Positions 22,467-61,727 of a stretch of DNA of 64,000 bases are shown piece by piece; the first letter of the stretch is position 1, and the number at the start of each line of letters is the position of its first letter. Origin of the DNA: Bispira polyomma. Its lineage: Eukaryota. The notes under the pieces are model-generated. The model was not told the origin of the DNA and ran no database searches. It saw only the letters and a list, made by a program, of their open reading frames with translations. The stretch lies in NCBI GenBank assembly GCA_965649765.1, contig OZ287754.1, positions 50,778,001-50,842,000 of the forward strand. The letters are read 5' to 3'. The translations under genes and the position numbers were made by a program.

Positions 22467-23570
22467 TCAAACCCTCTGATCTGACTTGTCCTCAGTTATC
22501 ACAGCTTTCCCTGCCTCTTTCTGTTTACGATTACACTTAATTTCAGCGTGGTCGTAATACTTGTGTACCACACGGTAGCAGTAGCCACAAGAGTGTTTCT
22601 GCAAGCGCCCACCTTCATAATGGTCCTGGTCAAATTTGCAGTTCCCTTTCACAAATTTGGCATATACATTGATCTTAGCCGAACTGTCCCTGTTACCATA
22701 ACTGTCCCGATTCCCAGAGTATCCACTGTTATCTGTCTTAAGGGCATGCTGTGTGAAATGCTGTCTGATTCTATCTATCTCTGCCTGGTCCTTTCAGGAC
22801 ACCATAACCCTCTCTATTTCTGACAAGATAGAGGCATGTGCACGCTTAGCTGTGGCCCACTATGGTCCATAGCATCCTGCATCAAATTATATTGATACTT
22901 AAGCATTTTTTGCCTAGCCGTTTCGTCCGTTTCGAATAAAACACACCGAGAAAACCCTTGAACCCACTGATAATGGATAACTCTTCATAGGTGGGCATCT
23001 TCAAAGCATCTGAGAGCATACAGTGATCATGAGGCCAGGTTACTGAAACTTTAACTTGCTGGTCGCCCAGCCTATATCGCCCTGACTTAAGTTTACTGGG
23101 AGCTTGGAGTTCATTCCTTGACATATCCTGGTACTGGCGAAGTCTTCTATCTACCTCGTCCTGAATAGCCGAATCGGTGCGGAGAAAATCCATGGAGGCA
23201 GTCGTTCAGTCGCCATGTTAGTGAGTACAGTGTCTCGTCGAGTCGAAGTTCGGCGTTTGGGTGAGCTGTGTGCTGACGGCACAGGCTCCAGTGACAGAGC
23301 CGAATCGCGAACTCGCTCCTGAGCTTCCAGTCTTTCTTCTAATTCTGCAAAGTTCCCCATCATCCGGTCGAGTTTTGCAAGCACTTCTATATTCTGAGAT
23401 TTGCGTCCCCGTTTCTTGGTAGTTTTGGTCCTTGTTTCCGTATGAAATTGGGACTCGTCCACAGTCCCTAGTGTAGCTTCTGCAGTGTTTCGGCCTTGGG
23501 TTGACGTGGAGGGCAGCCCTGGTGTCGGAACCTGCTCTTCCTCAGAGGAAGATGACAGCACTCCCTCCAT
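22467..23570 (-). pseudogene. Gag-like protein of DIRS element 1 (fragmented, C-terminal Cys/His finger)
   Basis: Similar to gag 58507-59883 (KSGR, WP, PTYEELS vs PTFDELT, C-terminal C..H...H.C..C..H...C). Confidence 0.75.
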
Positions 23571-29351: not shown

Positions 29352-32300
29352 TATGTGGACGAAATGTACAAAAATTTGCCATGTGACATCTTTGGAAGAG
29401 CCTTTATCCTTGATTACAAGGGGAAATGTTCACATCAGTGGCTGAATATTATGATCGATTTTGAGAAGCGCAAAAAAGCTGCCAGGCCTGGTGGCAAATC
29501 TTCCAACATTCCACTCCACATGGAATTTGCTCAACAATTTGAGAAGTTCACTAACAAGGACTTTGAGTCTGTATTTAAGGCCACCACAAGTTATAGGGTG
29601 AAGTTGTCCTCATCTCGTATGCTCTGCATCTCTTCCCGGAAAATGGCGCAGCAAATATCTGAAAAAAAATAAAAAAAATATTACTCATTTTAATATTAAG
29701 TACAGACACTGTTATAATTGCTGTGTGGATGGAAATATGAAAGTAGAAATAACAGAAATTGAAATACTTGATTGGTATTATAATATATATTACATCAATT
29801 TGGTAATATTTAGATGTAAATAGAGAACTGTGGATTTTGAGTACCCTTATCATACTATGTTTTGTATTGTTCTGTGCTGATCTAAAGAATACTCCAAAAC
29901 TTGTAAGGCTAACATCTTTGGGAGTGATTGTCACTCATGCCACCAGTATAATGAAAATTATAGTGATTTCCCAAGGAGAGAGTTAGTACTTAAGAGATAA
30001 GTCAGGTGAAATAACAACTGATCCAATAAGGGCGTGCACTCCACTTAATAGATCCAACAAAACGAAAACACCTGGCATTTATTGCTGTACAAAAGATGTA
30101 GAAATAATAGAAGAAAGAAGAAGAATGGATATATATACTGGGATTGTTGGATGTGTGTACAATTACTGAAGTATTATTAGAGATTTAAATCTAAGGTAGC
30201 AGCTTGACATTTATACAAAACAATACAAATGCATTCAAACACAGAAATATGATGTATGTAATTAATTTAACATTTTGCATCCACAGTAACAATATAATGT
30301 GCCTGCACTTACTAAACAAAAGTCCCGTGTTGAATCTGGTTGTGATAATCATTTTGAAGACTGGGGTGTTGCTCATAATGTTGTTGAAGTCTGGGGTGTT
30401 GCGCATGGTGGTGTTCTTGATGAGTGGCTGAGGTGTAGCTCCATTTAACCGTTTCATCTATATTGTCCTGCTGTCTGCTCCACCTATTGATTGAGATAGG
30501 AGTCCCATCCTCAGGTCTGAGCCACTGCTGAACATCAACTGAACACATTGGTAGAGCACGGTACTTGGGCATCTTGAAGCCATCTTCTCCAATTGTGGGT
30601 GAATAGGTTTTTGGTGTGAGGTTGGAGTAATGAAGGAATTGTAGTCTATGTTCTTTTCTTTTATTTGTTTTTTAATAACACCACACACACGCTCTCATTC
30701 TAACTCACATTACTATTCACTTTAACATTTTAACATTTCGATATTGTAGTTAGTAGCTAGCTTGCATCTACACTTGAGTTCTTATTAAGGCTGGGCTCAT
30801 CAGAGCTGGTGGAGCCAGAGAATCCAAGTATAAACACAGCAGCGTTACCTCCCACAGAATGAGTCACAGTAAATCTCTAGAATAATTAAATATCATTTCC
30901 TCTGTATAACACTATATATATATTTTCACATTTGTGTAATTGTTCAAGTTTGTATGAAGTAACTTTGATATTAATTCCATATCATCTATTATTATTTCAT
31001 ATGTTTCATATATTTTGTATAAACATTTCACTATATTATTCCAAGCTCAGGCTATTAGTTCTGTACTGCAGAATGATAACCGGCTGCCCATTCTTCCCCC
31101 AAAGTGCTAAGCTAAAGTAACACTTTGAAAGCAGCCAGCTAGTTGTCCCAGTGACCCAAGAAGCTAGTGTGTCACAGCCCCTGTGACCCAAGAAGATGGT
31201 CACTTGTAGTAATGCACCCACCATCACGCCTTGTGGTGGGTGAAGTCAGTCTCACTTACTGACTATCTGAAGTCAACTCTAACCTATGTAGAACTGAATT
31301 GCCTGGCTAAGGCTCTACCTCATATAGCGAAATAAGTGATAGGCATAATAAGGATTTACACAGCCCTTAGCCAATAAGCATTAAGATTGAAGAAGTATTT
31401 AATTATAAACCTGCCAGCTGTTGTTTAGGTCTCCAGCTATCACAATGCATTGTACAGAATTAACACCTTTGCTCTACACATATATAATTAGACTAACACA
31501 ATGCCATGACACAATGAAATGTCACAAAGGACTTCTTACATAATAGCTAGAGACATGTGGCTTTCCCCAATAATTAATGTCACATTACAAACTTGTAAAA
31601 TGGTCTAAATAAATATATAGACATTGCCTTTGTTGTTGCTTTAGTTTATAATACTAATGACAAAAGCTAAAAAAGAAATACTAATACAATGTACTTTAAT
31701 AAAATATATTCTATATTTTTAGAAACTCTTACAATATCCTATAATTCTATAGTTCCATAAATTACATCTTCCCACAGCTCTTTGACGGTGTCCAGTGTAG
31801 TAGTATTGAATCGCACGTGACAGATCTACTGCAGCAGAAAGCAGTGAGTGGTGTGAAGCATATCTTCCTGGTTGGTGGATTTGGAGAGAGCATCTACTTG
31901 AATGAGATGCTCAGCCAGAAGTTTGGACAAGGCCGTACCATACTGATACCTGAAGAGGCAAGCATGTGTATACTGAAAGATGCTGTACACTACAGTCAGA
32001 GGCTTTCTGATGTAACATCCAGGGTGTCCAGATTTACTTATGCTATATGCAAAAATCGAAGCTTTATTGAGGGTCAGGATCCAGAGGAACACAAAAAGGT
32101 AAAAGAAGGCGCTGCAAAAATGATACACAAGTTGGAGACATTAGTAAAGGCAGGAGAAGAATTACCCATGGAAAAAGTTCGCTCAAAAATAGGTTCTCCA
32201 ATGACACCAGACCAGAAGAAAGCTTCAATTGCTTTATTTAGCAGTAGAGACAGTCCACGTGACCAAAAGGCCCACCCACAAGATGGAAATGCTTCCCAAA

Positions 32301-32455
32301 TAGCCAATATAACTGTTAGTAGTCCTGACACATCAAAAAGTAAACAAAGAAACATTTGAGTTAACATGTCTTTTGGTGGAACAGAGATTTATTTCAGTGC
32401 TGTGGATGTTGAGTCAGGAAATGATGCTAGGACAAATATTGATATTGACAGCTAA
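29352..32455 (+). pseudogene. HSPA12-like pseudogene (last exon of a gene A duplicate), split by a 2.1-kb insertion
   Basis: 29352-29652 (YVDEMYKNLPCDIFGRAF...KMAQ) and 31775-32455 (LFDGV...HIFLVGGFGES...) are homologous to exon 5 of gene A. Premature TGA at 32357-32359; original stop at 32453-32455. Exons 1-4 not seen. Confidence 0.9.
29653..31774. mobile_element. Unclassified ~2.1-kb insertion inside the HSPA12 pseudo-exon, flanked by CAGC
   Basis: Breaks the collinear match to gene A at GCGCA^TCTCTTT. CAGC at 29649-29652 and 31775-31778. The minus strand starts GGGAAGA-TGTAAT (PPT/LTR-like). No recognisable protein domain. Confidence 0.55.
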
Positions 32456-39568: not shown

Positions 39569-42500
39569 ATGGCAGATGACAGTTATGTACTTGTTGTTGC
39601 CATAGATTTTGGCACAACCTTCAGTGGATATGCCTTTTCGTTTAAAACAAAGCCAAATGCCATCAAAATGAACAAGAGCTGGGGTGCTAGTCTGGGATTT
39701 CAGTCATACAAAACACCAACCACCGTTCTTGTTGATCCCAGTGGAAAGCTCAAAGCTTTTGGTTTTGAAGCTGAGGAGGAATATGCTAATCTAGAAGAAG
39801 ACGAAGTAACTCCAGATATGTATGCATTGTATCAAAGGTTTAAGATGATGCTGCATGAACAGAAGGTACACAATTACAGTTACTTACTTATTGTTGCTTC
39901 TTCTACTTCTTTGTCAACTGACAATTATATGTACTATGTAGCATATCTTTGATAATCAATAAAATCATTCTATGAAATCTAATAATTTGCTGTACATTTT
40001 AAGCTTTGTCTCTGGTTTGTCCAGTGGTCGACAATAAAGGTTATAATTAAATTTTATCACAATTAGTTTAATTATAGAATACAAAGAGCTAAAAATAAGA
40101 TATATCCATTTCAATTGAAAGATGGACCATTATAAACTTGAGGCGTTTTGTGAATAAATAAAATCTGATTGTCATCATTGTATATCTTGGAAATATTATT
40201 TACAAACAACATGTATATTGTTTAACTAGCAAGACTGAGACTGACAGGCATAATTTTAATTAGCATAATTTTAAAGAGCTCACCGACCGATTAGGCCTGC
40301 CTTGTGTTTGACTTGAAATAATTCTTTAAATATTGATAGGTTGTCAATATTATGTCCATTTATGTGTAATTTGTTATTTGCAATATCACAATATTCACTC
40401 ATTTTACTACTGAAATACTAATTGTTGCTCACCAGTAAAAAGAACAAACTTAGTGGTTGATCAGACTTATGTTCATTGCCACAAGAACCATTATTTCAGT
40501 CAATTAATAAAATCAAGTGTCATATCCATTTAAACAGTAATCTTGTATTAAAAAATGTGTATTATCTTAATTGTTCCAAAGTCAATTTCCTTTAATTTCA
40601 ATCTCCGCTGTGAAATATGTATTCAAAAGTTACATGTATAATATGCATATCCTTTTATCATTATCGTCTTCTATATTCACTGTAAAATATGTACATGTAC
40701 TTGTATAATATGTATATCCTTTTAAGTAAAGCATGAAATTGACATTTTAGAAAGGTGGTGACAAGCTCTTGGTACATTCTACCAATGGGAACATTCGTCC
40801 AGCTGTTGATGTCTTTGCCATGGCTCTCGAGTACCTAAAGGACCATGTGATTGCAGCAATTTCATTGCACTTAGCTCGGTAATTTATTGTGACCCAGCAT
40901 GTTTTATTTAGTTATGTATTATGCAGAACTTGTCACACAGTAAATAATGTGAACGTGTTTACTTATAAAGCACCACAATCGATCACCAGACATCGTCTAT
41001 GGTGCACATCCTAATCAGTAAACAAAAGAATAGTCTGATAGCAGAAAATCTTCGTTGTCATAGTTCAGTCATGACCAGCAGACAAATCATTAGGCAGAAA
41101 AGCGAGTTGATAAGGATGTGTTTTGAGCTTTTTCGTGAAACTGAATATTTTGGGTACACTTCTTACATATTCATATACAAACAAGTAACAATGCCTGTCT
41201 GCAAAAAAGCAAAACACACATCAATTAAATTAGCTGTTTTGTATATGTTTTAATATTTTCCTTTTAACCTGGACAAAAGTAAAGAGTTGTTGACATGTAA
41301 AATGAAGCAAGTGACATGATTGTATCAAGTTAATACAGATAATTAAAAGTTTTATATGCTACATAATTTCTTGTTTTATAGTCATCCAGATGCAGAATAC
41401 ATTAGATGGGTATTGACAGTCCCAGCTATATGGAGCGATGCTGCCAAGCAGTTTATGAGAAAAGCTGCTGTGAAGGTGTGAAATTTAAACTTAAATCTTT
41501 GCAGATGAGAAATATTGCAAATTATCAGATTAGGAACACTTTTTAACTTTCTACATTTATTACTTGTTTAATAATTAAATATTTTAACTGAACACAATTA
41601 TTCATTTGGGTTGAAAATCACATTTGTTAAAGACCAAGCCTTACAAATATACAGACTATGGCCTGTTTATTACTTAGGAATTTGAATTGTCAGTGTTTAT
41701 AACTTAACATACCTGAGTTACATATTACTATTAGAAGGGGAGTTTTTCCAAATATATTTGATTGGTCTGGATTGTCATGTGTAAACTATATGTCTGTTAA
41801 CATGCTTGCAGGCAAAGTTAATCGATGAAGTAAATTCAAAGCAACTGCTGATTGCTCTTGAACCAGAAGCAGCTTCTTTGTACTGTAGAACTCTAGAGAT
41901 GAAGCACTTCATTGGAATGCAAGCTCAAGAAGGAAATTTGAACCTGGCTGTCAACACAAAATACATGGTCATCGATGCTGGAGGTATAAAATCAATGTTT
42001 TAACAGCGAAACAGTATTTTCAGATATGATTTTCTGACATTTCGGCATTAAATAACTCTTGTATATCACTTTATAATAATAAAATCCAGTTTTAGACATT
42101 TGTTCAAAAGTAACCTAGGTAACATTTCTGATATCCATCAAACATTTTGTTTTTAATAACTTTGCAGGTGGGACAATCGATATAACAGTTCATGAAACAG
42201 AACAAGATGGAAGAGTGAAGGAACTGTACAATGCCAACGGAGGGCCATGGGGAGGATCATATGTGGATGGAATGTATGAAAATATGCTTACTGATATATT
42301 TGGACTGGCTTTCATTAAAGAATATAAATCTAAAAATCCTAATCAGTGGCTAATAATGATTATTGATTTTGAGAAACGTAAGAGGGCAAGCAAGCCAGAT
42401 AGTACAGCATCCACAAATATACCATTGAACATGGGGTTTGCCAGGCAATTTGAGAAGTTTACTGGGAAGGAGTTGGAATCTGCTTTCAAAGAGAGCTCAG

Positions 42501-43240
42501 TACCTGGTGTGAAATTTTCCTCAAGTGGAATGCTTTGCATATCTGCCACCAAAATGGCTGGCCTGTTTGAAAATGTCATTAGCAATATAGAAGAACATGT
42601 CAGAGAACAACTGCAACATCAAGTATTGGGTGACATCAGCCATATTTTCCTTGTTGGTGGATTTGCAGAGTGTGCTTTTCTGCAGAAGATGATAGGTGAT
42701 AATTTTGGGACTGGTAAAACCATTTTAATTCCTGAAGAAGCAAGTATGTGTGTTCTGAAAGGTGCTGTGATGTATGGTCACACACCTTCAGCTATATCAG
42801 CAAGAATATCCAGGTACACCTATGCTGTTGGCACCAGCAGAAAATTAATTCCAGGTAAAGATGATGAAAACTTTAAGAGGAAATCCAAAGGCACTCTAGA
42901 AGAGAGAATAGACTATCTTCAAATTCTTATTCAAGCGGGTGATTCAATAGTACCTGGCACATTTCGGTCAACAAGGCGACATCCACATAATCCAGAACAA
43001 ACACAGATTGGTTTTAGTCTTTACAGAAGTTCTGACATTCTGCCACAGAGAGAAGTACATCCAACAGATGCAAAAGTTACTAAGCTCGCCAAAATTACAG
43101 TTCAGAGTCCCGACACAAGCAAAGGAAAGGATAGACATATTGAAGTGACTATAACATTTGGAGGAACAGAGATCCTTTTCAATGCCATAGAACTTGGCAC
43201 AGAAAATGAAGCATCTACAGTTGTGGCATTTGAAGTTTAA
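39569..43240 (+). CDS. HSPA12: Heat shock 70 kDa protein 12-like (HSPA12 family), gene B; 5 coding exons 39569-39865, 40751-40878, 41382-41475, 41812-41983, 42168-43240; 587 aa
   Basis: VVAIDFGTTFSGYAFS, IRWVLTVPAIWSDAAKQFMR, ALEPEAAS, VIDAGGGTIDIT and IFLVGGFAEC. GT-AG introns with phases 0,2,0,1. Joined CDS is 1764 nt and open. Confidence 0.94.
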
Positions 43241-45975: not shown

Positions 45976-48663
45976 TCATTTATGTGACAAAACTTGCTTG
46001 TCTTTAGATTTTCTTAGTTTAGGCTTTAAAAATTTATACGGAGCAACACGACACTGTCCATCGGTGTTGGATTTCTTGGAAACAACTGTCTGCGTTAGAA
46101 TAATTGCATTTGTAGAAGTACTGTAGGTAGCATAGTTGGGATTAGTGTTCACTTCATTTGTGATGCCACGTTGCTGACAAAAGAAGTTTTCAACAGCATC
46201 AGAATTTAGTCGGGCCGGAACTAAAATGCCTTCTTGGTGCTGGCATACCTTTTCATGTAAAGCAAGAACACCATAAAGGTATGATAACATGTCCTCCATA
46301 CATTGAGGAGAAAGTTTGGAACTATTTTCACCTTTATCCCACTCTAAAAAGAAACACTTCAAATCTTGAATCATTTGGATACGCCTATCAAATTGCAATA
46401 AAGGTCTTCTATCCTGGGCAAAGGCAACAAGCTTTGATGTTTGTTCTAACAGTGATATAGTACCATCATACTCATGACAGTCAGGACCTTTTGATTTTTG
46501 GAGGTGTTTTATAAGGTATAACATTTCGTTGTCAAGAACATCCTCTGCAAGTTTGTTTCTCATTTTGTTTGGTCCATTCAAATCAAAATGTTCATTCCAT
46601 AATTTTGGGTGTATTTTCCAAAGTTTGGTTTTATTAAATTCATGTGCATCCAAAAAGTGTGACCAACGACTTGTTTTACCCATTATCATTAGATTTTTCT
46701 CAACACCATTGCTCTTTAATAGTCCATTTCTAATCTTTTTCAAGTTGTGTATTACATCCATTATGAAAGTCACAGACTTTTCCAGATTTATAGGACTTTG
46801 AGCAGTGAAGCTTTTCTCAGGTGCATCTTGCTCAAAATGAAGCTTCATAAATTTTCAATTTGACATTGCCCCATCGATGCTGGTAAACTCTACCTTAAAA
46901 CCGTAGTCTTCCAGTTTATCTACCCCCTCCCAGAAGTTAAAGAACAGATGGTGAGCTTGTGCCACCATTACTGGGAAATGACCAACGGGAAAGCGAAAAC
47001 CTGTATGTCCGAGAAAGATAAATTTAGCTAGTTCAAATTTCTGATTGCCTTTTGAAATTTGGTCCACCAGATTCCCCAAATTTCCAATGTCTACATTTCC
47101 GACTAGACACATATCAGGTCCTTGTTTAACTATTTGAAGGTCTTGTTGTATGGACAACAATCATCAATAAGCAATCCACCCCACCATCCATTTTCTGGAA
47201 GAGACAGGCGAATGGCTTCCTCATGCATCCAATGAAGAACATCATCCTAATAAGATGAAAGTAAAAGTCAACACATAATTTGCCTGTATGCTCATGTATT
47301 GGTAACGTTGGTCTGTAACAATGTTCAGTTATTAAACTAGAGGATTAATAGTGTTTAAGTAGAGCGTAGAACAGAGCATCTGTGGTTAGCAAAGATGGTT
47401 AGCAAAGAAAGCATGGACATAATATTGATATGTTACCCATAGGAATTGGTCAAAATAGCTAATTAGTCTTTTTAGAGACATTCAAAGTTATAAGAAAATG
47501 TGTAGCAGATTAAAATGAAGCAATAAATAGTAATGCGAATGCTTAGTCATCTGAACTCTACTTATTGGAGGACTAGTTACAAATTATAATTTCTTTAACA
47601 GTATGACTGCTACAATGCTAACTGATTTTCTGAAATAACCAACCTGAAAATCTGGAGACTGATTACAACAGTTCTTATAGTATCTCATTAAACAGCCACT
47701 TGGTAAAGTAATCATTCCACCATCTTTCAATTCCTGGTATGCCTTTGGCGAGCGACAATACAGGGCAAGTGACATTGAAATAATTTCAGGGTCCCACCTC
47801 CTACCAAATGGAGAACTGGTTGTTGCTGCTAGCTGGGAATGAATAAGTGTCTTACTTGACTCTGGAATGTCTGATTTTACTAACAAATCGAGTATTCTTG
47901 TGATATCGTCTGACTCATTCTTGTCTAAAATAAGTGTGTCTTTCAAAGAAGTGTCTGTAGTTGTCTCCGGATTGGCCTGTTTAATGGGGATTTTTTGTAG
48001 CTTGATTGAGTTGCACGACCTACACACCTGTGATGTGTTTGAAAATGGCACTAAATGAGAACATTTTTTGCTTCTCGCTCTCAGTTCTGGTTTGCTGTTT
48101 TCATTGCCGTACATGGATATTTCCTCATTTTTACAGTTACTAATACTTGTACGGTTCTCAGATAGGGCTTTTCCCTTGCAAATTTGTAACTCCTGAGACA
48201 GGTGAAGAATTGAAATTACTCTATTTAATGCCCAATTGTTGCTATCATCAAGACCAATTGCTACTGGGGAGATATCTTTCTCTGAAATGGAGTAAAACCA
48301 CTTATCTCCAACAAGTGAAATTTTCCTTTGCACATGTACCCTTTTAATGACTGTATCAGACATCATTGAAACTTTTAACATATTTTCTGATCTTTGCAGA
48401 ATTGACCAAGATTCTGGTGAATCAAAACTGAGTGGATTTACCAAAGAATTGTCCTTATCTTTCCAAAACACATTGAACATTTTTTCTGTTTGACCTGTTT
48501 GAAGATTAACTTTTTGTCTAGAAACTACACTTTTGAATATTTTCTTCAGGTGTCTACTCATTAGTTGGCTATTAGTGTCTATTCCTTTGTCAGTTTTAAA
48601 TTTGGTGCGAATGTCACTCAGATAAACGAATGGGGCCTGTGAATAATGTAGATTTGCGACCAT
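45976..48663 (-). pseudogene. P-element/THAP9-like DDE transposase (two exons: 48663-47644, 47246-45976), disrupted
   Basis: GRRWDPEIISMSLALYCRSPKAYQEL...LPS, GGLLID-LSIQQDL, FRFPVGHF, SIDGAMSN, DVIHNLKKIRN, KMRNKLAEDVL and RLNSDAVENFFCQQRG are P-transposase hallmarks. GT-AG intron 47643-47247; one frameshift (~47160) and an in-frame TGA (46855). Confidence 0.88.
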
Positions 48664-51600
48664 CCTGAAAAGAGAAGTTATGATTTATTGAAGAACCAGG
48701 ACACTATCAAACTGACAGCAGTTAAGTTACATAACTTCTAAAGTAACAAAATACAGATCACCCTACACATAAATAATACAACGTAAAGTATGTACTTTAG
48801 GTGAGGGGATCTCAGAAAAATGGTGCCCCAAATACCAAGAAGTTTTTGAAGCATAGGTGTGTTCTGATAGGTGTGCCCTAAATACCAATAACAATTTGGG
48901 AAAGATTGAGGGGTTCTTTAAGAACTGCCACCCCTTTTGCCAAAAAGAAATATAAATCACTTTTATATATTATAACATTTAATTTCATGAAACTAAAATA
49001 TGAATGTATACTCGTGGCCGGTGGATTCGATAGTCTAACAGTTTAAAATGCTTATCTGTTAAATTGTCGGTATAACATTAATTTTACTTCATAAAATATT
49101 GAATTACATTTTCATAACAATCTGTCCATAATACATATTATGCTTATCTATGATATTTCTTTGATTAAATTCACAGACATTGACTGCATGTGTTTGCTGA
49201 CTTGTAAGGTAAATGGCCGGTGGATTATATACTCAATATATGAAAAAGCATTTTAAAGTAGAATTCACTGTTTCTAATATAATATATGTGTTGTATCTGT
49301 AAGTTATATAGTTACTAAGACAGGAATATCACATTATTTTCTTTTCTCACAATATTCTGAATTATTCAAATTTCTCAAGTACTGACTCCTTTTATATTCA
49401 ACTTTCTGGGCTATATCATATATTTTTTATTGTATCAAAAGTATCAGAAAGCGTATTTCTCTGGCTTCATGAATATATATGCTTAAAATATGTATCACCT
49501 ATATTTACTAAAATATGAGCATTTCATTAATAACCTCCACTCTAAAACTTCCATTTTTAACATTTTGGGATATACAGTCCAACTTTTACTAAGAATATCT
49601 TCCTGACCATTTGTTAGACTTCAAATTGGTTAACCCTGCCATAAGAGGCATGATATGACCTTTCTGATGATACAAAAACAATTTTTTTTGGCGAAGTATT
49701 CATATAGATATAGCAATTTTTTCAATTGAAATTTTTGGGAAAAATTCCATAAATCACTATCAAATCCACCGTCTGTGACATTATATTATTGAGTGTGAAA
49801 TATACCACAGGGGAAAATACATATAATTGATACTCTAACTTTTTTACATACTCAAAATTTAAGATTAAAGTTTACTATGTGCTGTGAACTTATCATAACT
49901 TTAAAGATCTATTAAATGGCTAAATCTAGCAGGTCAAAACTTTTTGGGAGGCAGTGTAAAAAATACGTAGACAAAAGCAAAAACAGCTTTTACAGAAAAT
50001 ACTTTCAATTAAAACTATAAGATATAAAAATAAATAACATACCAATCATAAACATTCATTGTTGTGAATTGACAATTTGTGTTTATGTGATAAGTTAATG
50101 TAATTGTTCAAAGTTTATTTCCTGGTATTTAAAAAATGAACAACCAATGAAAAGTGTCAAATAAACTATCAGGTGATTGGTATACAATATTGAGGTCACA
50201 TGATCAATGACAGCTGCAGAATGGAGCTAAATGTGTTAAAAAAGTAGGAAGTTATTTTTTATGGTATGTTTTTTTCATTGAAAGTGAACCCTAATGCAAA
50301 ATAAAATGCTGTATGAAGCAAAAACAATAACTCGTAAATAAAGTGATATATTTGTTTTGTGCATCAAATTGGATAAAAGGCAAGTAATTGGTTGTGAAGT
50401 GTGAGAGGTAAGGAAATCACGTATTGCAGAGTTGCCAAACTTGTCTTTTTTATATATACTGCTACCGTGCATTGTGGAGAATTTGTATTTTCGCTCACGG
50501 AAGACGGGCCCTGGCAACTGTGGATATGGCCATAGTAACAATCAAAGTCAGCTTTACAATAACAATTGTAAAATTCAAGTTTCGCTGACCAATTGGCACG
50601 GTTTCTGTAATCCAATTCAAACCATCACTCCTATTGCGCATGTAAAAGACAAGTCTGATGGAATTAAGGTGTTATTCAACATTTACTTTGATGTGACTAC
50701 GGCTAATTATATTTATGTCAGTGTTGAAGTTCCACCAAAAGGGCTATTGGAAATTATTCAGACATGGGAAACCACAGTGATATTTCTTTAATATATAATT
50801 CATATAATGAAGTGGAATCTCACAACCAACAGTGGTTAAGCAAGCTGCTAATACTGTATACTATTTCAAGAGAGATATGGCATGCCATGAGCAGATTGGT
50901 TGTAATTACACTGAATATGTTAATTGATGCATTGATTGCCGACATTGAGGAGGAAATGCCTCAGGTTAGAGATGTGCCAGGCCAGACTGCCAAGGCAAAT
51001 GTAAGTAGACACAAATACAACAAGTCAATTGTGGGACTTGTGGGATATACACAGAACCATCGTGCACCAAGTTCACCCAAATTATTCAAAGTAATCAGTC
51101 AAATGACAAACAATTTAGTCAGATTAAGGACTTTAATGATCCTCACAAAAGCGTGGGTTTCTTGGCACTTTCGTCCATTGACCTTACTTTCATGGACCCA
51201 GATAGACCACATAGGAACATTCGATCAGTAAAAGACATGCTGCGAGTGACCACCTTTACCAGGGAAACTGCTGTCCCAAACTATAGAAAGGCTAGGATCC
51301 CACTTTTATCTGGCTTACATATTTAAGCTTGGGAGGAGACTACCCTGATAAATTACTTTGCCAATATATCAAATTTGGGTTTCCCTTATCTCTCACCAAA
51401 CCTTCTGCGCTGAACATTAATCTCGTGGTGAACCACTTTTCTGCTCTTTAACACACTAAGAGTGTAAAAAACTACCTTGAAGAGAGAAAGAGTAAAGGGG
51501 CTATGTTAGGCTCAGTGAAGGATATAGACTCTCCACATTACCATTGCTCACCCTTTCTAACATGTCAGAAAGATATTAACAGTCACAGAGTTATACTGAA

Positions 51601-53634
51601 TTTTTCATATCCGTATGGCTCTCAGTGAATGAGAATGTCAAAAAATCACTTTTCGATTGACTGAAATGTACTTTGAAATTTTCCACTATAGGCAACATCA
51701 CTCAAGCAATTTAAGACTTGTATTTAAAGACAACATCGCTATGGCATTCCGCAACCTGCATAAACGCATTGAAAGTTGGTATTTTGTTTCAAGAGGGCAG
51801 ATACATTGATCTGGCAGTAACGTTTGACTGGGTCCATGGCAGGATTCTCATGCAATTGTGTCCTGCATGTGTCACCGTGGTTTCAATATGTTTTGCTAGG
51901 TCACTTAGGTCTCCATATGAATGTGAGCAAAAGAACTCACCCTAGCACAAATATCACATACCTAGGGTTAGATATATACGTCATAGGGGGACAATTAGTT
52001 ATCAAAAGGAAAAAAATTCATGATAATTTGGAATGTTGTTGTGATGTTTACAATAGACATACAATCTCGTTTAGCAGGTTCCAGTCATTTCTGGGTAAAT
52101 TACTGTATGTTCATAAATGTGTGAAATCTGCACACACCTTTATTAATAGACTGCTTAACACATTCAGAAACAATAGTGACAAAAATAAATCTGTAGTTAC
52201 CATGGACATGCGGAACAATATGGCATGGTTAAAAAATTCGTATAAACTTTAAATGGCATTACCAGTCTACAAGTCAAAATTATCAAACTCTCGCTGTCTT
52301 ATTATTGTATTTACAATGAAGAGTTCCCACTTCCCAGTTCTTCCTTACATACTAACTCTAAGTATAGCTATGCTACACCCAGATGTAAATGAAGAAGAAT
52401 ATTCACGATAATGTCAGTATGTGTTCCAGTTCATGGTGTTTTATTATATCTAGTGTATTTATAACAAGCACTAAAAAGGTATGTCCATTCCTTGCTGACT
52501 ACCTTCACACTAACCACACTACCCCAGCATATTAGAACCACAACTTTCCTTACTCAATAAAGGCTACATGGTTAAACTGCAGACAGAGTAGGACCATTTA
52601 AGTGTATTTTTAACTTTGTTTTTCAAACTTTCTGTACCAAGGAAGGAGGAAGTATATGCCACTCCATACTTAGATGTTTACAATCAAGAGTTCACATTTG
52701 TTCACCTTGAGATGTTGAACATTATTCTGTTTCTGGGCCCACCAGGGTATACTCTTTCACTGCAATATTATGACTGTAGTTCTGGTTGTGAACACTCAGA
52801 AAACTAGGGATACCTTTTTAGCCTCATGTTTAAGGACTATTTGGCTTCTTGCTGCCACTCATGGCACAACTATAGAAGTTCAACATATCCCAGGCAAACA
52901 TAATAACATTGCAAATTCTCTTTCCAGGATTCTGCCAAACCACCAAATGCTGAATTATTACAAGACTTCACACAATCAGTATCACTGGAACACAGCTCCT
53001 ATACAATAGTTCATATAGTTTATTCGTACTCAAAGTACATTTTTTATAATATACAAACATGATAGGAACAAACAAAAACAGGAAAAAAAACAACAAAACA
53101 ATACTTCAATACTTTAACCTGAAATTATACGTGTAATTTCAGACATAACCAGAGTCACATAACCACATAACTACAGTAACCAATTCAAGACTTTCTTGGC
53201 TTTTCTGAATGTGGCCAGCCTACAACAAAATTATAATGTTTCTATCTTTATTATAATCTCTCTTCTCTAAAGTTCAGTTAATTCCATAGCTTTGTTTATC
53301 AGTATAACCATTAACTCCTCTTTGTGTCCTAAACCAAAAGTTTTATTTGATATAAATCAGTTAACACAAATTTCACAGGCTTATCAGATCTTACAGGATC
53401 CAGCATTGTATAGAACAAGTTTCCTCTTGTCTTTTTTCGGGGTTTTCAGGCTTTCAAACATACCCTCTCATTCTAGAGCTTCTTTTGACCTTTGTAAGCA
53501 TTTTCTTCGGAAAGACAATTTTTTTGCCCCACCGGGAGCTCATGTCAAACTAAAATGGGCAACATAACAATTTGCACAAAAGAACTGAAACACACATTTA
53601 CCAATTCTTCTGCTTAAAAACTTCCCTGCCCCTG

Positions 53635-53825
53635 CAGTCCACTTAAGTTATAAGGTGTAAGTTGGGTTCAAGATGTTAAGTAATGGATTTTAAGTCAAGT
53701 GTGATGTTTGTGTAAGTAAATAAAACGGTTCAGTTTGAGCTTTATTTTATATATACATGTTAATGGTATATGTACAGAGAAACAAGTGTAAAAATGGTTA
53801 AAATTCAGAAAATTTTAAGCCCCAA
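53635..53825 (-). repeat. Split direct repeat B2 (191 bp)
   Basis: Same sequence as 54808-54998. Confidence 0.95.
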
Positions 53826-54575
53826 TCAAGGAGGACTAAAGACCAACAGAGATTTAAGTCGTAAAGGACTAGCCAATAATAAATACATAAAAATATGCGG
53901 ACTAGCCATTAAATAATTATACAATATACGTAAGCGTACAACTTAAAACTGGTATCATTCTTGTTACCTTTCAAGCTATATAGTGAAATATGTAGATACT
54001 AAAAGTTACACATAAAACAATAAATCTTGCATAAATCGACACATAAATTACATCATCAATGGCCATAAACAGTCCATATACCACATTTATATCATTGCTG
54101 AAGTTCAACATAGCTAATTGTTAGAAACTCTCTCATTATTGGTTAATATTTACAACCACTCTCAGTTTATATGCCTGTATTTAACATTATTTACTAAGAT
54201 ACCACAAGTAATTTTCTCAATTTCATCCATTGGCATGCGCTTCAGGCTAACCGATGGCCTAGGGCACCAACCGCCTAGCAAAGGGGAAATCCTGCCCGTC
54301 ATACCCCCTCCTGGCGATGCATTATATGACCCAGTGGAGGCATAAGAGACAGGATCCCCCCTTCACACGGCCACCGGCTCGAACCTTCGCCGTCCGCTCT
54401 GTTGCCGAGTTCCCTGTTGGAAACGACCGGATTACAATTCCAATATAGTAGTGACTTGCCCGTATTTCCACGTGGACTATTCACTTTGTCGTGACATGAT
54501 ATTAAAGAAAACATAAAGCTTAAGTCGCTGATTATTCGTCAAGCACTAGGCTGTGGTCATAGGGGAGGAGGTGGG

Positions 54576-54998
54576 TCATAAAATATTTTTCACTTGTTGT
54601 TGCTTTGAATTCTATAGCTTGAATGTAGATTCAAAATGGTGATTTGGAAAGTGAAGCCTAAACAACAAGTGTGTGGGCTGTGATTGGCTAGTAGCCCAGT
54701 AAATAGCTACATATATTGTTGGTATAACCGAAATTAAGGTTGTGATGAAAGTTAAAAGGTTTGTAAGTGGACTGAAGTATCAGGCCCCTAAAGGGTCCTG
54801 CTGTGCACAGTCCACTTAAGTTATAAGGTGTAAGTTGGGTTCAAGATGTTAAGTAATGGATTTTAAGTCAAGTGTGATGTTTGTGTAAGTAAATAAAACG
54901 GTTCAGTTTGAGCTTTATTTTATATATACATGTTAATGGTATATGTACAGAGAAACAAGTGTAAAAATGGTTAAAATTCAGAAAATTTTAAGCCCCAA
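54576..54998 (-). repeat. Internal B1-A2 split-direct-repeat junction (circle-junction copy)
   Basis: 54576-54807 equals 59970-60201 (A); 54808-54998 equals 53635-53825 (B). The two join at GCTGTGCA|CAGTCC. Confidence 0.95.
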
Positions 54999-55004
54999 GC
55001 CCAA

Positions 55005-55758
55005 CTAGAGAGAAGAAGGAATGGAAGAGGCAAAGGTATGAGGCACGACTGATGCTGCCTGGGAGGTTTTTTGGAGGTAAGCCCAAACTGAAGATGATCT
55101 CCAAAGCCCGTGGGCCATTATATTCTGTAGGGATACATTATGATTAAATGCAAATGAAGCTCCAGAACGTCTGAAAGTATGGAATCCATGTGAAGAATAT
55201 TGTATTCCAATGTGTGTCAAGACTTTTTCCAGAGCTGTCCTTACATGTGTTTCTACTATGGTGTGATGTGGTGTACCAGCTACTGCAAAAAGTGGTGCAG
55301 CAGGAGGAAGGGGCCTGGAAGCTAGTAAGGTTTGTAATGCCAATACTGGACAAATAGTCTTATTTTGTAGTTTTGGAATTTGTATTATATGTGTATCTGT
55401 CCTATTTTGCAAATTTTTTGCCCATTTTAGGATGATGTGAGCCCCAGGATGTCCAAAAATTAAGTCCTGTCTGAGAAAATGCCTAGATCTATCAAATGTG
55501 GCCCTTGAGTGAGGGGCAATATTGGATAATCTCAAAAAAGCAAAATAGGCCAGGCAGCAGGGGAAATGTTATTTTGTGTCAAATATTCCAAAAAGGCCAG
55601 TACTGAATGAACCGAAGTATTTGAAATGCCTGCAAATTCATTAAAAGCCAGGAAAGTTTTAAATTGATTTTCGTAAGCAGAAGAAGTCTTTGGTCTAAGT
55701 GCTGTGTCAATCCTTCCACATGCTGAAGTGATGAGTTTCTGAGTAATGGCAGTAGCAC
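55005..55758 (-). pseudogene. Tyrosine recombinase of element 3, with an internal frameshifting deletion near 55555
   Basis: N-terminus ALRPKTSSAYENQFKTFLAF...LEYLTQNNISPA jumps in a different frame to AYFAFLRLSN...CPVLAL...HTFRRSGA...HGLWRSSSVWAY (R, HxxR, H/W, Y catalytic set). Confidence 0.9.
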
Positions 55759-55764
55759 CTGTAA

Positions 55765-57886
55765 TTATATTAAAAAATCTAGGTCAAAATGTTGTATGAG
55801 TACTGGATTCCAAACATAATTGTTGTATAAATTATATAACATGTCCCTGCTGGGAGGAGTTTTGCAATAAATTCTAGAAAGGACATCTGCTATTATGTTT
55901 TTCTTGCCTGGAATGTGCTTAATGCTAATATTAATGTCATATGTGGCTATAAGTAGCCAAATGTTCCTTAAGCATAATGCTAGAAATTCGTCTTTCGTCT
56001 TCTGACTTTCAACAACCAGTACGACGGCCATGTTGTCACAGTGAATTGTTAGTCTACTGTGAGCCCATTTTTCACCCCAAATTTTTAAAGCCAGGACAAT
56101 GTTCAGCATCTCTATATGCACTATGGTAAGCTCTCTTTGATAAACATTATAATATGGTGTAGAGTATACTTCTTTGTTCCAGACACCTCCTAAACCTGAT
56201 AGGCAGGCGTCCAGATGTAACTTGTCCATATGGGAAATGTCCCTATGGTTAATGTATGATATCCCGTTATATTGAGGTAAGAATTTTTGAAACCAGTCGA
56301 TGTCATGGCGCATTTCAGAAGAAATTTTGAATTTTTTAGCATTGTGATAATTGCTGAAACCTTGAAGTAATCTATTTATGAAAGTTCTGGCAGGTTTCAC
56401 GCACTTGTGAACATATAATAATTTTCCTAATAAAGATTGAAACTGAGTACGTGAAATGTGCAATTTTTGAGAGGTGTCATTTACCATTTTAATTATGCTT
56501 ATAAGTTTTTCTTCCTGTATGCTAATAGTGCCGGCAGTAATATCAAAGTCTAAGCCTAGGCATGTAAGGCGAGTTGTGGGAGGTGTAAGCTTATCATCGT
56601 TAATTGGGAAACCTAGCCTAAGCAATAAATCTTTCAAAATACGGAAGCCCTTGTCAGCCTTATTTCTAGTACATACACATATGTAGTCATCGATGTAGCA
56701 AAATACTCTAAACCCGCGTTCCGACATATAGGCTGCTATGGCATCGGAACAACGCTGAAAAGCCGCGCTTCCGTGTATCCACCCGAACGCGACCGCAGAG
56801 TCAATGCACTGCCCTTCAGCGAATTGTATGCCTAGTTTCAGTGCGTCAGCTGGATCAACTCTCAAGTTACGGAGATGCTCGGGCCACGTCAATCTTGAAC
56901 AGCACTGGATCATGAGTATTCCGAATCGCCTCTGTGATGTCGTCAATAGTAGGAAATTTTAATATGAATTTGACCCCATCGAACAGTGCTTTGTCTACAT
57001 TTTCGTTTAGTGACTGCCCCAGTGGATAAGAAAGATTTAAAATGACCCTACGTTTGTCTGTGTCTTTGGGTCTGGTTAAAAGGGGTGAGCAGTGATAGTG
57101 TGGTGAGTTCACTTGCTTAACTGGGCCTAACATCGCCCCCATTGACTTTTCTTTCTCAAGATATTGCCCGACTTCTTTCGTAAATTGCAAAGCAGAGCAA
57201 TGGTTGACAGTTTTTGAATTATTTAGTTTCCCTGGTTCTGTGAGAGATAGAGGAAACCCGAATTTTATATATTGTATTAATAGCTGATCCGAATAGTCAG
57301 TAAGCATTTCCTCCCACGCTGTGTGGTGTAATCCCGAAATTAAAGGAATTCTAGCCTGCCTATAATTAGGGAGATTCGTGCCTCTAACTATAGCAGCAAT
57401 TTTTTCCATTTTACCGACTGAATCAACTTTTACTGGCTCCTGATCAGGACCAATAAACTGAAATTTTGTGGAAGATAATGGAATAAATCCCACTGATTTT
57501 CCTGATTGGGCGATATGACAATTTTCCTTAATGTTCTTACTGGTCCCAGCATTGACCCCATCAGTTTTGAAGAAGAAATCGCGAATCGGACATGTGTATA
57601 TTTCATCGCAGGGCACACTCCTTGGAGTCTCGTGTCCAGCTGCAGTATTTACATTGAATTTGTCTGCACTGCTTCCATTGTCATCTACGTTCCAGTTATC
57701 ATCACACATAATATCAATAATATTCGTTATATATTCAGAATAGTTGCAGCCATACTGTTTGTAACACTTTTCATCTTTACTGAAATTGTCGAAAACATTG
57801 CCTGCCTGTTCAATATCCTCAGCATTACACTGATTAACCTTACTTAGTAATTTTTTGCATCTATCTGTGAGATCATAATATATCAT
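55765..57886 (-). CDS. DIRS-type reverse transcriptase/RNase H of element 3 (one frameshift near 56873)
   Basis: TRPKDTDKRRVILNLSYP, KIDVARA-(F)RNLRVDP, AFGWIHGS, YIDD, LDACLSGLGG, HIEMLN, CDN and ADVLSR. ORFs 56867-57886 and 55765-56946 are joined by a 1-nt insertion in GCATCTCCGT. Confidence 0.9.
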
Positions 57887-58326
57887 ATATACACATATCT
57901 GTGTATGACCTGCAGATCTCCTTGAGGTATATTAAACACAGGCATGTACTTCATTTCATTGTCCCGACTATGATGGTATATGTAGTAAAACCCTTCAATT
58001 TCATTGCAGCTACAGTTTAAGAATATTATTGGAGCCCAAACGGACCATTTTTTACAAAAATGTTGCCAATTGGTGACAGTGACTGTTACTTCTATCTGAT
58101 TTTTACTTTCTGTTTCTTTAGAATTACCATCATAGTATTGGGAATTAACATAACCAGCTAACTCGCTGTTGCAGTACTGCATTTTACTTCCACTGCATCT
58201 GGATTGCCCACTGTCATACAAAAATAAGTCATAATGCTCTGATATACAGTTGTAATCCGTCATCATGCCTCCATTTGAAACATTTGTGAAATTACTAGAG
58301 TACATTTTGTTCACATTGTTTTGCAT
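57883..58326 (-). CDS. Uncharacterised ORF between gag and RT of element 3
   Basis: 147-aa ORF whose C-terminal ~60 aa align without gaps to 50570-50762 of element 2. Its TGA overlaps the ATG of the RT ORF (ATGA). Confidence 0.55.
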   Translation of the reverse strand: MQNNVNKMYSSNFTNVSNGGMMTDYNCISEHYDLFLYDSGQSRCSGSKMQYCNSELAGYVNSQYYDGNSKETESKNQIEVTVTVTNWQHFCKKWSVWAPIIFLNCSCNEIEGFYYIYHHSRDNEMKYMPVFNIPQGDLQVIHRYVYI

Positions 58327-58506
58327 TATGTTCTCATTTCCATTAATATATTCATTGTTCTCATTACCATAAAACAGTATATTATCAACATCATTAGATT
58401 TAAGCTCACCTTTTACAATTTTAATGTTACTATCATGCTCATCTCTTATTTCTACTTTGCAATTATCTTTAACTATAGTTCGTTCTCCTGGTTGTTGAAG
58501 AATTAC

Positions 58507-59883
58507 CTAGCTTTGCTTTCCTTGGTTTACCTGAGTGTCCAGCTGTTTACTGTTGGATCTGTAACACTTGAACTCAGGGTGGTTCGAGTCCTTTCCCAGG
58601 GTTCGGCTACAATGCCAACAGATGTGTTTATATTTGTCGTGATCTGACTTGTGGGTACATTTACCATTGTTATATAACTTACAAATAAGTTTAGAATCGT
58701 TGCTAGAATTGCTGTTGCTAATACCTACGTTTGCACTGTTGACCATGGCTACCTGGGAAGCACTGAGCCTATTCAGTGACCATTGGGTGTCGTTCTGCCA
58801 GGACAGCCGGCCCTCCTCGACCTCGTGCATACTGAGAGCCCAGGCTGTCCTGACAACGTGCCACGGAAGAGATGAAGCATCTCTGAGTGCTGATACTATT
58901 TGTCTTACCATGTCCTTCATTTCAGCAGGGTTAGGTACTAACAGTGCGTTAGCGAGCTGCCCTGCAGCCCACTGCGGCAGTGTGAGTTCATCGAACGTTG
59001 GCTTCTTCTTTGAAGAACCCCCTACCCACCCTTCGTTAGGCCACCTTAGCCTGGGATCTATGGAAGTGACGTCTGTGTTATTGAACCGTCCCGATTTATG
59101 CTTAAGAGATGCCTTACCTTGTGTTATATCTCGCTGTGCAAGTGCTGAATACTGAGCAAGTTGTCTGGTAACTTCCGCCTGGACGTGAGGTAAGGTTCTT
59201 AAAGCATCTAGATTCGGTACGATCCCGTCTCGTTGGTAATCGTGACCCGTGTGTGTTGCTACGGGGATGTCTGGTCTAGCGTTCTGCATATAAGCTGATG
59301 CAATATTGCCTGACTGAGTGGGAAGCGCGAACGCAGCGTTGCCCTGTGCTGGTTGTTGAGGAGGATAACCCGTCTGTGGTAGTGATCCGGCAGCGATCTG
59401 GCCGTGGTGGCCTGTAGCAGGTTGGTTGTATGCAGATGTACCCTGCACGTTAAGTGAAACTGTAGTTCCCATCTGCCCGATGGCCGGTGTGTGACCCGTC
59501 CCGAGGAGAGATGGGGTAGGTAACATGGATGCGTTAGTCGATGCCTGCTGCTCTACTTTCTGCAAACGGCCAGCTAAGTCGGCGTTAGAAGCTTCAAGCC
59601 TTATGAGAATGGCAAGCATTTGGTCAGAATTCTGGCTGCTGGTTGTGTCGGAACCCGGCCTAAGTAGGGGCCCCCGAGTCGCCATCATTGGCGAGGCGTC
59701 GCTATTTATCTGTTGAAAAGAATTGTCAGTACTAGAGGGGCCCGCTACCTGTGATAATTGACCGTCGAGGTCCAAGACGAGAGAATCAACTACTTGCCTT
59801 TCCTTTGTCTTTCTTGCTGTAAGTGGTTTCTTGGTCGATTTTTTAACTGAGCTGTGTGTGGGCGTTTTCTTAGTACGACCCAT
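58507..59883 (-). CDS. Gag-like protein of element 3 with C-terminal Cys/His finger
   Basis: Open 458-codon frame from MGRTKK; KHKSGRF, RWPNE, PTFDELTLPQWAAG and ICKLYNNGKCTHKSDH..YKHICWHC...HPEFKC. Confidence 0.85.
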   Translation of the reverse strand: MGRTKKTPTHSSVKKSTKKPLTARKTKERQVVDSLVLDLDGQLSQVAGPSSTDNSFQQINSDASPMMATRGPLLRPGSDTTSSQNSDQMLAILIRLEASNADLAGRLQKVEQQASTNASMLPTPSLLGTGHTPAIGQMGTTVSLNVQGTSAYNQPATGHHGQIAAGSLPQTGYPPQQPAQGNAAFALPTQSGNIASAYMQNARPDIPVATHTGHDYQRDGIVPNLDALRTLPHVQAEVTRQLAQYSALAQRDITQGKASLKHKSGRFNNTDVTSIDPRLRWPNEGWVGGSSKKKPTFDELTLPQWAAGQLANALLVPNPAEMKDMVRQIVSALRDASSLPWHVVRTAWALSMHEVEEGRLSWQNDTQWSLNRLSASQVAMVNSANVGISNSNSSNDSKLICKLYNNGKCTHKSDHDKYKHICWHCSRTLGKDSNHPEFKCYRSNSKQLDTQVNQGKQS

Positions 59884-59969
59884 GTCGATTGATTCACAAT
59901 ATGTAACACACAATGTGTAATAAAAACCAAGTTAAAATAATAAAATCACATAAATACAATTCATTTATT

Positions 59970-60201
59970 TCATAAAATATTTTTCACTTGTTGTTGCTTT
60001 GAATTCTATAGCTTGAATGTAGATTCAAAATGGTGATTTGGAAAGTGAAGCCTAAACAACAAGTGCGTGGGCTGTGATTGGCTAGTAGCCCAGTAAATAG
60101 CTACATATATTGTTGGTATAACCGAAATTAAGGTTGTGATGAAAGTTAAAAGGTTTGTAAGTGGACTGAAGTATCAGGCCCCTAAAGGGTCCTGCTGTGC
60201 A
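59970..60201 (-). repeat. Split direct repeat A1 (232 bp, 5' terminus)
   Basis: Matches 54576-54807 with a single T/C difference (AAGTG[T/C]GTGGG). Confidence 0.95.
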
Positions 60202-61727
60202 TATCGTACTACAAGAACTTATCTTTTCTAGACCACTGACCACTCACTCACCACTGTTTGCAGCCAATGTACCTCTATTTCAACCAATTGTCCAATCTCA
60301 AGTTAGATCGGCTTTACAAAATTGTTTAGAAAATATAGGTATTCCTTTACAATCACACAGCTTTCATACTTTTAGAAAGTCAGAAGCTACATTTGCCTTT
60401 AAGAAAAACGTATCTTTGCAGAATATTATGTTGCATGACCTTTAAAAGTCATCATCAGTTTAGGCGTATCTCCAACAAACATCTCAGGCTGCTTCAGTGG
60501 TACCTCACACTATAGCTGTGGCTATCCGTTTTTTTTAGTTGGGCTTGAGGCTTGAAATTTTAACATATTAATTTTTAACTTCTCTTATTGCCAACCTGTA
60601 CATAAATATTAAACTGTGAAAAAAAATCTCAAAAGGAATCTTTAGTGTCTTCAATTAAACTTGTATTAACTTCAATTAACTTACCTTTAACTTACCCATA
60701 AAATTACTTCAACTTACCTTTGAACTTCACCACTTGTGGACTGTGCATACCAAGTCCCTACAACGGACTACTAGGTCAGTCCACTCCACACATTATATCT
60801 ACCCTAATTATAGCTAATACCTTAAAACCTCCCCTAGAAAATGCTATGGCATCATCCTTTCCTCTGTCCATCCACCTGGGGGCCAATCGGTGTATGAAGT
60901 TCAGATAAAAGAGTTCCTGGTCCACAGGACCAGCAACCTTAAAAAGTTACTGGTCTGTAGAGAAAGTAGTCAGCCCGATTAAACGTAATATTAATAGTTT
61001 TCTTGTGTTATTTAATATTTATGTATTGTATAGATAGATTTCTTAAGTAAAAGTATACACTTTTATATCTTAGGCTCTTTATGTTTTGTGCTTAATCTGC
61101 ATATTAGCTCATGGAGTGGTAAATTGTGATTTAACTTGTTTATAATAAATTAAGGCTGCCACAACATACCAATATATGGATATATTCTGATATAGTCTCT
61201 CAAAGCAAAAAGCCAATTCGTAGTTCTGAGTGTGCATGCATCGTTACCGGAAGTGAAAATCTTTGGCACACATAAACAAATGACATAAATTATATAACCT
61301 GCCAAAATATATTAAAATGTTAATTCTCAGTTATTATTCCAAATAATACTCTCAGATTTGGATATATGATGTATAAGTATTGGTTCTTTGTAAATATATT
61401 TACTTTATTGTTAAAGGATTACAATTCCATTGAACTTTTATACACGCACCATATTTTGAAAAATAAAAATGCTGATTAATTATTAATAACTCAGAAAATA
61501 CTGTAAGTAAAAATTTTGCAAAAATATGATGAGAGAACCTATTATATTGCGATTACTATGCTACTTTTTCCATCAAAATCCCTTGGGAAATGACCGAGTT
61601 ATTAAATTTTAATTACGGGTACCCATATTTACTGGGTTGTTGGCTGCTTGTTTGCCATATACAAGTACGTATCGATAGAGTATTGTCACTATAAATCTTT
61701 TAATATCGCTCGCTTCCGGGGTAAATA

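Follow-up and report, generated by a model that had tools for sequence, protein, structure and literature searches.

Conserved gag donor and post-RT acceptor motifs in Ngaro-like retrotransposons of Bispira polyomma point to a probable spliced Gag-tyrosine recombinase fusion

How is the tyrosine recombinase (YR) of a retrotransposon made when its reading frame has no start codon? This question was raised by an element on the minus strand of contig OZ287754.1 of Bispira polyomma (assembly GCA_965649765.1), within a stretch of 64,000 nucleotides (positions 50,778,001 to 50,842,000) that is called the window here. By structural criteria, the element is Ngaro-like and belongs to the order DIRS, with gag, pol (reverse transcriptase, RT, plus RNase H) and YR in this order. 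An earlier, sequence-only reading of the window had proposed that YR is translated from an alternatively spliced RNA. Comparative tests of the two splice sites came out in favour of this proposal, and the spliceosome probably uses the sites. Host splicing of a donor in gag to an acceptor past the RT stop, which would give a Gag-N/YR fusion, was the best explanation of the sequence data, with a probability of roughly 0.87.

The splice-site pair was recomputed in the window copy. The RT stop TAA lies at 55767-55765 and is followed by four nucleotides and then by AG at 55760-55759. In gag, GT at 59117-59116 follows 766 coding nucleotides counted from the ATG at 59883, which corresponds to 255 codons plus one nucleotide, that is, phase 1. 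The phases of donor and acceptor match because base 55758 takes the second position in a Gly codon of the YR frame, and the in-frame join that had been read from the sequence was reproduced. The GT was the joint best of the 290 GT sites in the element, with 8 of 9 matches to the donor consensus. The lack of an ATG near the start of the YR frame was also borne out. Where family copies have an open YR, its first Met comes about 80 codons past the acceptor (codon 88 of the frame), after the SAM-like domain. The intron would take out the whole RT region, as had been stated, since its span of 3359 nucleotides holds all of pol.

The element was compared with 39 fetched copies of its own family. The donor GTAAG was intact in 34 of 34 mappable copies (5 of the 39 were without the region), and the acceptor AG was retained in 38 of 39, with a subfamily of about 80% identity among them. 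The ATG and the donor were both mapped in 30 copies; the donor was in phase 1 in 25 of these, and exon 1 and YR were open as well in 14. Young copies are little informative, and other families were therefore sampled. Two other elements of the window and two diverged YR proteins were used as queries, which gave 100 more loci from the same genome, hand-picked for diversity among the top-scored of more than 12,000 candidates. For 134 of the 139 loci the start of YR could be placed (five were unmappable), and these formed 45 clusters at 80% identity. Eleven clusters had no intact RT tail, eight had no mappable gag, and nine with a short YR frame were left outside the tree. The YR tree of the other 36 clusters showed two groups, A and B, with support of 100/100. 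YR identity was 25-40% (about 34%) between the groups and 54-84% within them.

The acceptor was conserved across this sample. At the position fixed by YR homology, YAG was present in 42 of 45 clusters and in 124 of 134 copies, against a background of 214 in 3600 (5.9%) at other phase-1 sites of YR. When the stop was defined from the RT side, the first AG past it was the acceptor in all 34 clusters with an intact RT tail, in the form TTNYAG/G. It had been predicted that the AG after RT is always in phase 1, and this was true in these 34 clusters. T occupied positions -6 and -5 in 34/34, -4 was free, -3 was C in 17 and T in 17, and G stood at +1 in 34/34. The 20 bases upstream of the acceptor were 50% T, compared with 28% farther upstream. 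The gap between RT stop and acceptor ranged from 4 to 12 nucleotides. The frame from RT to YR was -1 in 29 clusters, 0 in three (a supported clade) and +1 in two, and the acceptor phase was constant. The residues before the acceptor Gly varied (V, S, T, A, L or I), with the splice bases unchanged.

The donor gave a similar picture. A phase-1 G/GTA was found at most 11 codons before a KSG motif in 35 of the 37 gag-mapped clusters; the background was 36 of 5619 downstream gag codons. Because this count was defined by the KSG motif, a protein alignment was made as a second count. It contained a phase-1 GTA in 34 of 34 segments, in the aligned column in 16 of them (group A) and in the adjacent column in 18 (group B). 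The two misses of the KSG-based count were a frameshifted copy (L149) and a locus in which Gly was lost and GTATG was kept (L156). As a control, 78 conserved four-fold columns of gag, pol and YR, which share the ancestry of the tested clusters, were inspected. Their commonest third base reached 72% at most, with a central value of 0.42. The Gly of the KSG motif, the donor's neighbour, was GGT in just 17 of 37. Around the donor the residues varied (Q, T, P, S, H, N or A before Gly, and K, M, I or T after it), with constant splice bases. The sequence-only reading had expected Gly-Lys codons fixed as GGT-AAG. This was correct for GGT and the next A, but AAG was a property of one group only. In the other group, the codon after Gly was ATG, ATT, ATA, ACT or ACG, which kept the donor and not the Lys. 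These results showed that the sites are under nucleotide-level constraint, with a GT-AG donor and acceptor consensus and matching phase. The intron had been called cryptic; the sites are kept across clusters, and conserved alternative intron is the better description.

Other routes to YR were weighed against these data. An in-frame ATG and a frameshift site had been named beforehand as observations that would speak against splicing, and neither was conserved across the clusters (ATG in 3/34, heptamer in 2/34). If ribosomes shifted to the -1 frame where RT ends, a Gag-Pol-YR polyprotein would result. Such a shift fits the window copy, which has T TTT TTA in the correct frame, a heptamer that the earlier reading did not mention and that at least 29 of the 39 loci of its cluster have. 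It also fits the -1 frame of most clusters. However, the canonical heptamer is gone even from the subfamily that shares about 80% identity with the window copy, YR is in frame 0 or +1 in 5 of 34 clusters, and it has no overlap with RT in four. No RNA structure was seen downstream of the heptamer (z of 0.25 and 1.42). A frameshift would also leave the conserved gag donor without explanation, and we considered it highly improbable. Translation might instead restart after RT, by termination-reinitiation at an overlapping stop and start (A-TGA) or from a near-cognate start. A-TGA does supply an in-frame ATG in L068 and L130/L138, and a Met at the junction starts 12 of the 21 outside YR homologues that reach it. 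But most stops are TAA, Pol itself is probably a low-level recoding product, and the invariant TT-N-YAG-G and the gag donor would both be unexplained. This route was judged very unlikely.

The remaining explanations concern the motifs themselves. Both sites may be real but not joined to each other, for example if the acceptor is used with a different phase-1 donor, or if the spliced RNA is mainly regulatory. The one conserved donor that was seen has the phase of YR, although the 5' part of gag, which is unalignable across clusters, was not scanned for donors. Near the gag end, there was no second conserved acceptor. A phase-1 YAG was present at +22 in 11 of 18 group-A clusters and at +25 in one more, and AG was absent in five others with the same motif. 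The chance of such a separate use of the two sites is slim. That the motifs reflect chance or protein constraint only could be argued from the fact that any motif is conserved within one young family, and from the preference for Gly in linkers. However, third-base fixation at the sites was far above all 78 control columns, the flanking amino acids varied, and the intronic TT and YAG are located past the RT stop. This explanation has a negligible probability.

Several observations weighed against splicing of gag to YR. All the DNA evidence is from a single genome, and the binomial P values for the site counts are overstated because the clusters are related. The donor is paired with the acceptor on the grounds of phase and because no other conserved partner was seen. 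In group B, the +5 base of the donor is often T, which makes a weaker site. The Gly donor was absent in 2 of 37 clusters and the acceptor in 3 of 45; all of these are single copies, either decayed or mis-mapped. Three of the 34 clusters had an in-frame ATG at the exon start or ahead of it, and the junction Met of the 12 outside homologues is what a TGA stop would give; this Met count is biased, because gene calls have to open with a start codon. A search for processed (spliced) genomic copies gave 0 matches to the altered-upstream pattern against 33 unspliced. This is a weak counterpoint, as there is no need for a spliced RNA to enter packaging.

Traces of the spliced product and homologues were also sought outside the genome. 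In three read runs of one study (of unrecorded kind, contigs only, DNA-like, with flat depth), the predicted junction was not among the 15 of 27 joints listed, which counts neither for nor against the splice. Among 120 YR homologues from outside assemblies, 21 reach the junction, and at the protein level 19 of these had I-S/V/P-G/D, as the acceptor would force; these data, too, are biased by gene calling. The viral scan and the first metagenome scan gave no related DNA loci. The second metagenome scan gave two short distant loci, one with gag broken at the donor region (L170) and one that ends near the YR start (L171); neither was counted. No annotated Gag-YR fusion was found, and the search for longer proteins returned one protein, an RT-YR run-on without the YR N-terminus. 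With a profile of the exon-1 helix, none of 33 matches carried YR. The seven gag matches were plain Gag. The ten matches that were looked up came from genomic ENA contigs, so spliced products were not expected there.

The junction between gag and pol was of a different kind. In group A, all 18 clusters (of which L100 was mis-mapped) had TAG as the gag stop and G as the next base, with pol in frame and no upstream pyrimidine tract. In group B, all 19 clusters had GTT (18) or CTT (1) as the last gag codon, and after it came a stop of any type and then a pyrimidine; pol was in the +1 frame in L083, L154, L157, L159 and L162. We take these junctions to resemble UAG-G readthrough sites in group A and +1 shift-at-stop sites in group B. 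Pol seems to be expressed through stop readthrough or a +1 frameshift, not through splicing. The sister groups are candidates for different recoding, each with its own route to Pol. Downstream of the gag stop, no local RNA structure was seen (mean z of 0.27 and 0.32). A second conserved acceptor near the gag end that would serve pol was considered and rejected, as the YAG there was not conserved across group A. A motif of the type C-R-A-C-Y-A recurred 12-18 nucleotides downstream of the group-A gag stop and is unexplained.

The part of Gag that would enter the fusion was examined by structure prediction. The model of the Gag segment was of limited quality (mean predicted local distance difference test score, pLDDT, of 70; predicted template modelling score, pTM, of 0.47). 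It contained a helix at residues 20-39, the donor Gly as residue 44 in a low-confidence linker, and a helical core at 90-172. The donor is ahead of both the core and the Cys/His finger. Because the donor lies in the linker before the core, the fusion would retain the basic N-terminus together with a long region of low conservation and the conserved helix, and would lose the core. The loss of the Cys/His finger had been foreseen correctly, but the claim was incomplete, since the whole conserved helical core would go too. Tethering of the recombinase to Gag particles is therefore put forward just as a hypothesis. A homodimer prediction for the exon-1 helix scored 0.02. Foldseek gave no match of the Gag core to solved folds at E 0.001. 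In the capsid-fold comparison of the core (VIA), the best Z was 5.4, with a root-mean-square deviation of 4.2 and 77 aligned. Neither comparison yielded a clear match.

Based on these results, we propose how the element would be expressed. The unspliced RNA would serve as the genome and as the mRNA for Gag, and it would also give Gag-Pol by stop readthrough in group A or by +1 frameshift in group B. In a minority of transcripts, the host spliceosome would join the gag donor to the acceptor just past the RT stop. This spliced RNA would encode about 255 N-terminal residues of Gag and the whole YR, about 580 amino acids in unbroken copies. It is possible, at somewhat less than even odds, that the conserved helix at the end of exon 1 is kept to bring YR to Gag assemblies. 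Alternatively, exon 1 may supply only a start codon and a basic N-terminal stretch as a nuclear signal. A wider form of the proposed splicing is offered tentatively. In an ancient and widespread YR lineage, a spliced Gag-N/recombinase fusion might be the only form in which the integrating enzyme is produced, with the N-terminal helix as a Gag-loading tag. One transcript would then serve three routes: Gag would come from plain translation, Pol from UAG-G readthrough or a +1 GUU-stop frameshift, and YR from splicing.

The identity of the element was determined from its repeats and domains. An exact-repeat search of the window gave split repeats A (232 nucleotides) and B (191 nucleotides), both pairs 100% identical, in the order A1-ORFs-B1-A2-spacer-B2 (ORF, open reading frame). 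B1-A2 (54998-54576) lies downstream of the YR stop at 55005, and these are thus internal repeats after YR. The terminal repeats are direct, and no inverted pair of at least 40 nucleotides linking both ends, as in DIRS1-like termini, was found. RT and RNase H were recognised by Pfam on 55768-56958 (RVT_1, E 8.5e-07; RVT_3, E 5.1e-05). No Pfam match to a methyltransferase domain was obtained after RNase H, and this feature of PAT-like elements was thus absent; in 34 clusters, pol ended 40-41 codons past the final RNase H motif. The N-terminal part of YR gave weak matches to the phage-integrase SAM domain (E about 0.008, 55532-55762). The C-terminal YR piece of the window copy had no Pfam match at E 0.01, and a homologous YR piece at 18897-19430 matched Phage_integrase with E 2e-4. 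HTFRR and C-terminal Tyr motifs are visible in YR. As in other elements of the order DIRS, a tyrosine recombinase ORF takes the place of a DDE integrase. An arrangement of gag, RT/RNase H and YR, split direct repeats and no methyltransferase characterises Ngaro-like elements in the sections covered of PMC4157794, PMC9210276 and PMC13465315; PMC4157794 cautions that structural features are homoplasious.

The earlier reading was also silent on the state of the window copy. Compared with the 39 family copies, its pol has frameshifts near 57892 and 56875, and its YR is short by about 224 nucleotides at 55553, with a frame change. This copy could not, judging from its frames, produce a full recombinase. 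In open-frame copies, pol has 912 codons in frame after the gag TAG, and the YR frame has 333 codons from stop to stop. The coordinates of the features are listed in Table 1.

Table 1. Features of the Ngaro-like element in the window and the predicted splice junction
Feature	Position	Strand	Basis
Predicted exon 1, coding part (255 codons + 1 nt)	59118..59883	-	ORF and donor
Predicted 5' splice site, phase 1, GT 59117-59116	59112..59120	-	Sequence and conservation
Predicted alternative intron, 3359 nt; would contain Gag core, zinc finger and all of pol	55759..59117	-	Splicing inferred
Predicted 3' splice site, AG 55760-55759, phase 1 in YR frame	55758..55764	-	Sequence and conservation
YR coding exon with SAM-like N-terminal and catalytic parts; lacks about 224 nt at 55553	55005..55758	-	Pfam, copy comparison
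Conserved motif of about 35 residues, predicted amphipathic helix, ends right at donor	59119..59223	-	Alignment, model
Gag Cys/His finger region, absent from predicted fusion	58564..58683	-	Invariant C and H columns
T TTT TTA slippery-type heptamer, RT frame	55771..55777	-	Not conserved, no downstream structure
Gag stop TAG then G, pol in same frame: candidate readthrough site	58506..58509	-	Mechanism inferred
gag ORF, 458 aa, ATG 59883, TAG 58509-58507	58507..59883	-	ORF
pol: RT and RNase H, no methyltransferase domain; frameshifts near 57892 and 56875	55765..58506	-	Pfam, copy comparison
Whole element: Ngaro-like YR retrotransposon, A1-gag-pol-YR-B1-A2-spacer-B2	53635..60201	-	Repeats and ORFs
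Repeat A1, 232 nt, identical to A2	59970..60201	-	Exact repeat
Repeat A2	54576..54807	-	Exact repeat
Repeat B1, 191 nt, identical to B2	54808..54998	-	Exact repeat
Repeat B2, 3' end of element	53635..53825	-	Exact repeat
Spacer A2-B2, 750 nt, also in other copies	53826..54575	-	No long ORF on element strand

Other observations were made on the element and its relatives. The spacer was 96-98% identical across most young copies, its first half is GC-rich, and other copies have the same spacer and begin at the same base as the window element. Ahead of RT there are about 330 Asn-rich, poorly conserved codons (window about 57500-58506, minus strand), which had no Pfam match and whose frame is open in many families. 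The element is inserted inside the YR gene of an older, decayed YR element on the plus strand (50486-53561 and 60203-60526). A decayed group-B element at 19026-23211 (minus strand) has kept the phase-1 acceptor; its donor codons are gone through a small deletion that is absent in relatives. At L036 (G000:C5:5699671-5706567), two copies are arranged in tandem, and the ORFs of the second are directly preceded by the first copy's spacer and B repeat. This tandem is consistent with a circular or concatemeric intermediate. The host genome of 1.035 Gb gave more than 12,000 first-look candidates for these YR genes, with open frames in many families; its YR-element load is very large and recently active. 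Elsewhere in the window, there were another RT ORF (7594-9156, minus strand; RVT_1, E 1.6e-34), a P-element-like transposase fragment (TNP-like_GBD; 45976-46854, minus strand) and an unannotated repeated ORF in three plus-strand copies (13318-14478, 31745-32359 and 42119-43240).

The pair of splice signals is genuine and conserved in an element class that is already known, and the expression route that it suggests was not found in print. The translation of downstream ORFs in DIRS-order elements is not addressed in the literature covered. If the fusion is made, annotated stand-alone YR ORFs would be partial proteins, which matters for the biochemistry of these eukaryotic recombinases. Splicing would also be a host control point that decides whether the element can integrate. 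The candidate readthrough and +1 frameshift at the gag-pol junction form a second testable layer beside the conserved splice signals.

The earlier impression that this strategy is unreported for DIRS-order elements agreed with the literature searched, in which none was found; supplements and Repbase entries lie outside that search. In the parts covered, PMC7192593, PMC6681497, PMC3266345, PMC9210276, PMC4157794 and PMC3783388 describe YR ORFs as overlapping or frameshifted and describe no splicing route. The parts covered of PMC5633606, PMC13465315, PMC8226300, PMC12477816, PMC9341512 and PMC2632668 likewise describe overlapping or frameshifted YR ORFs and no splicing route to YR. The strings 'splic' and 'intron' had 0 occurrences in the covered text of PMC3266345, PMC9210276 and PMC3783388. 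For fungal Ngaro groups, the covered part of PMC3783388 gives the YR ORF as in frame or frameshifted relative to RT-RNase H.

The present element shares with Ngaro-like elements the order of gag, RT/RNase H and YR, the repeats A1, B1-A2 and B2 with the internal pair after YR, and the lack of a methyltransferase. It differs from them in that B2 lies 750 nucleotides after A2 and no SGNH hydrolase ORF was seen, and a splicing route to YR is not described for them in the literature covered. In foamy viruses, pol is expressed from a spliced mRNA, and retroviral env is likewise a downstream gene expressed through a subgenomic spliced RNA. These genes have their own start codon and, in contrast to the proposed fusion, are not known to be joined to half of Gag. 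The nearest working analogue is the SD' RNA of murine leukaemia virus (MLV; P50/P60), in which, according to the part covered of PMC10496198, a donor inside gag and an acceptor in pol give an in-frame fusion of the Gag N-terminus to integrase. P50 is reported there to be packaged in virions. However, it contains only integrase's final 116 amino acids and is accessory, whereas in the present element a complete tyrosine recombinase would be obtained by splicing alone. Plant Ty1/Copia elements with shGAG also set a protein ratio by conserved alternative splicing (PMC5580714, part covered). They are the mirror case: their spliced RNA gives only Gag and their enzymes come from unspliced RNA, whereas in the Bispira polyomma elements the spliced RNA would give the integration enzyme.

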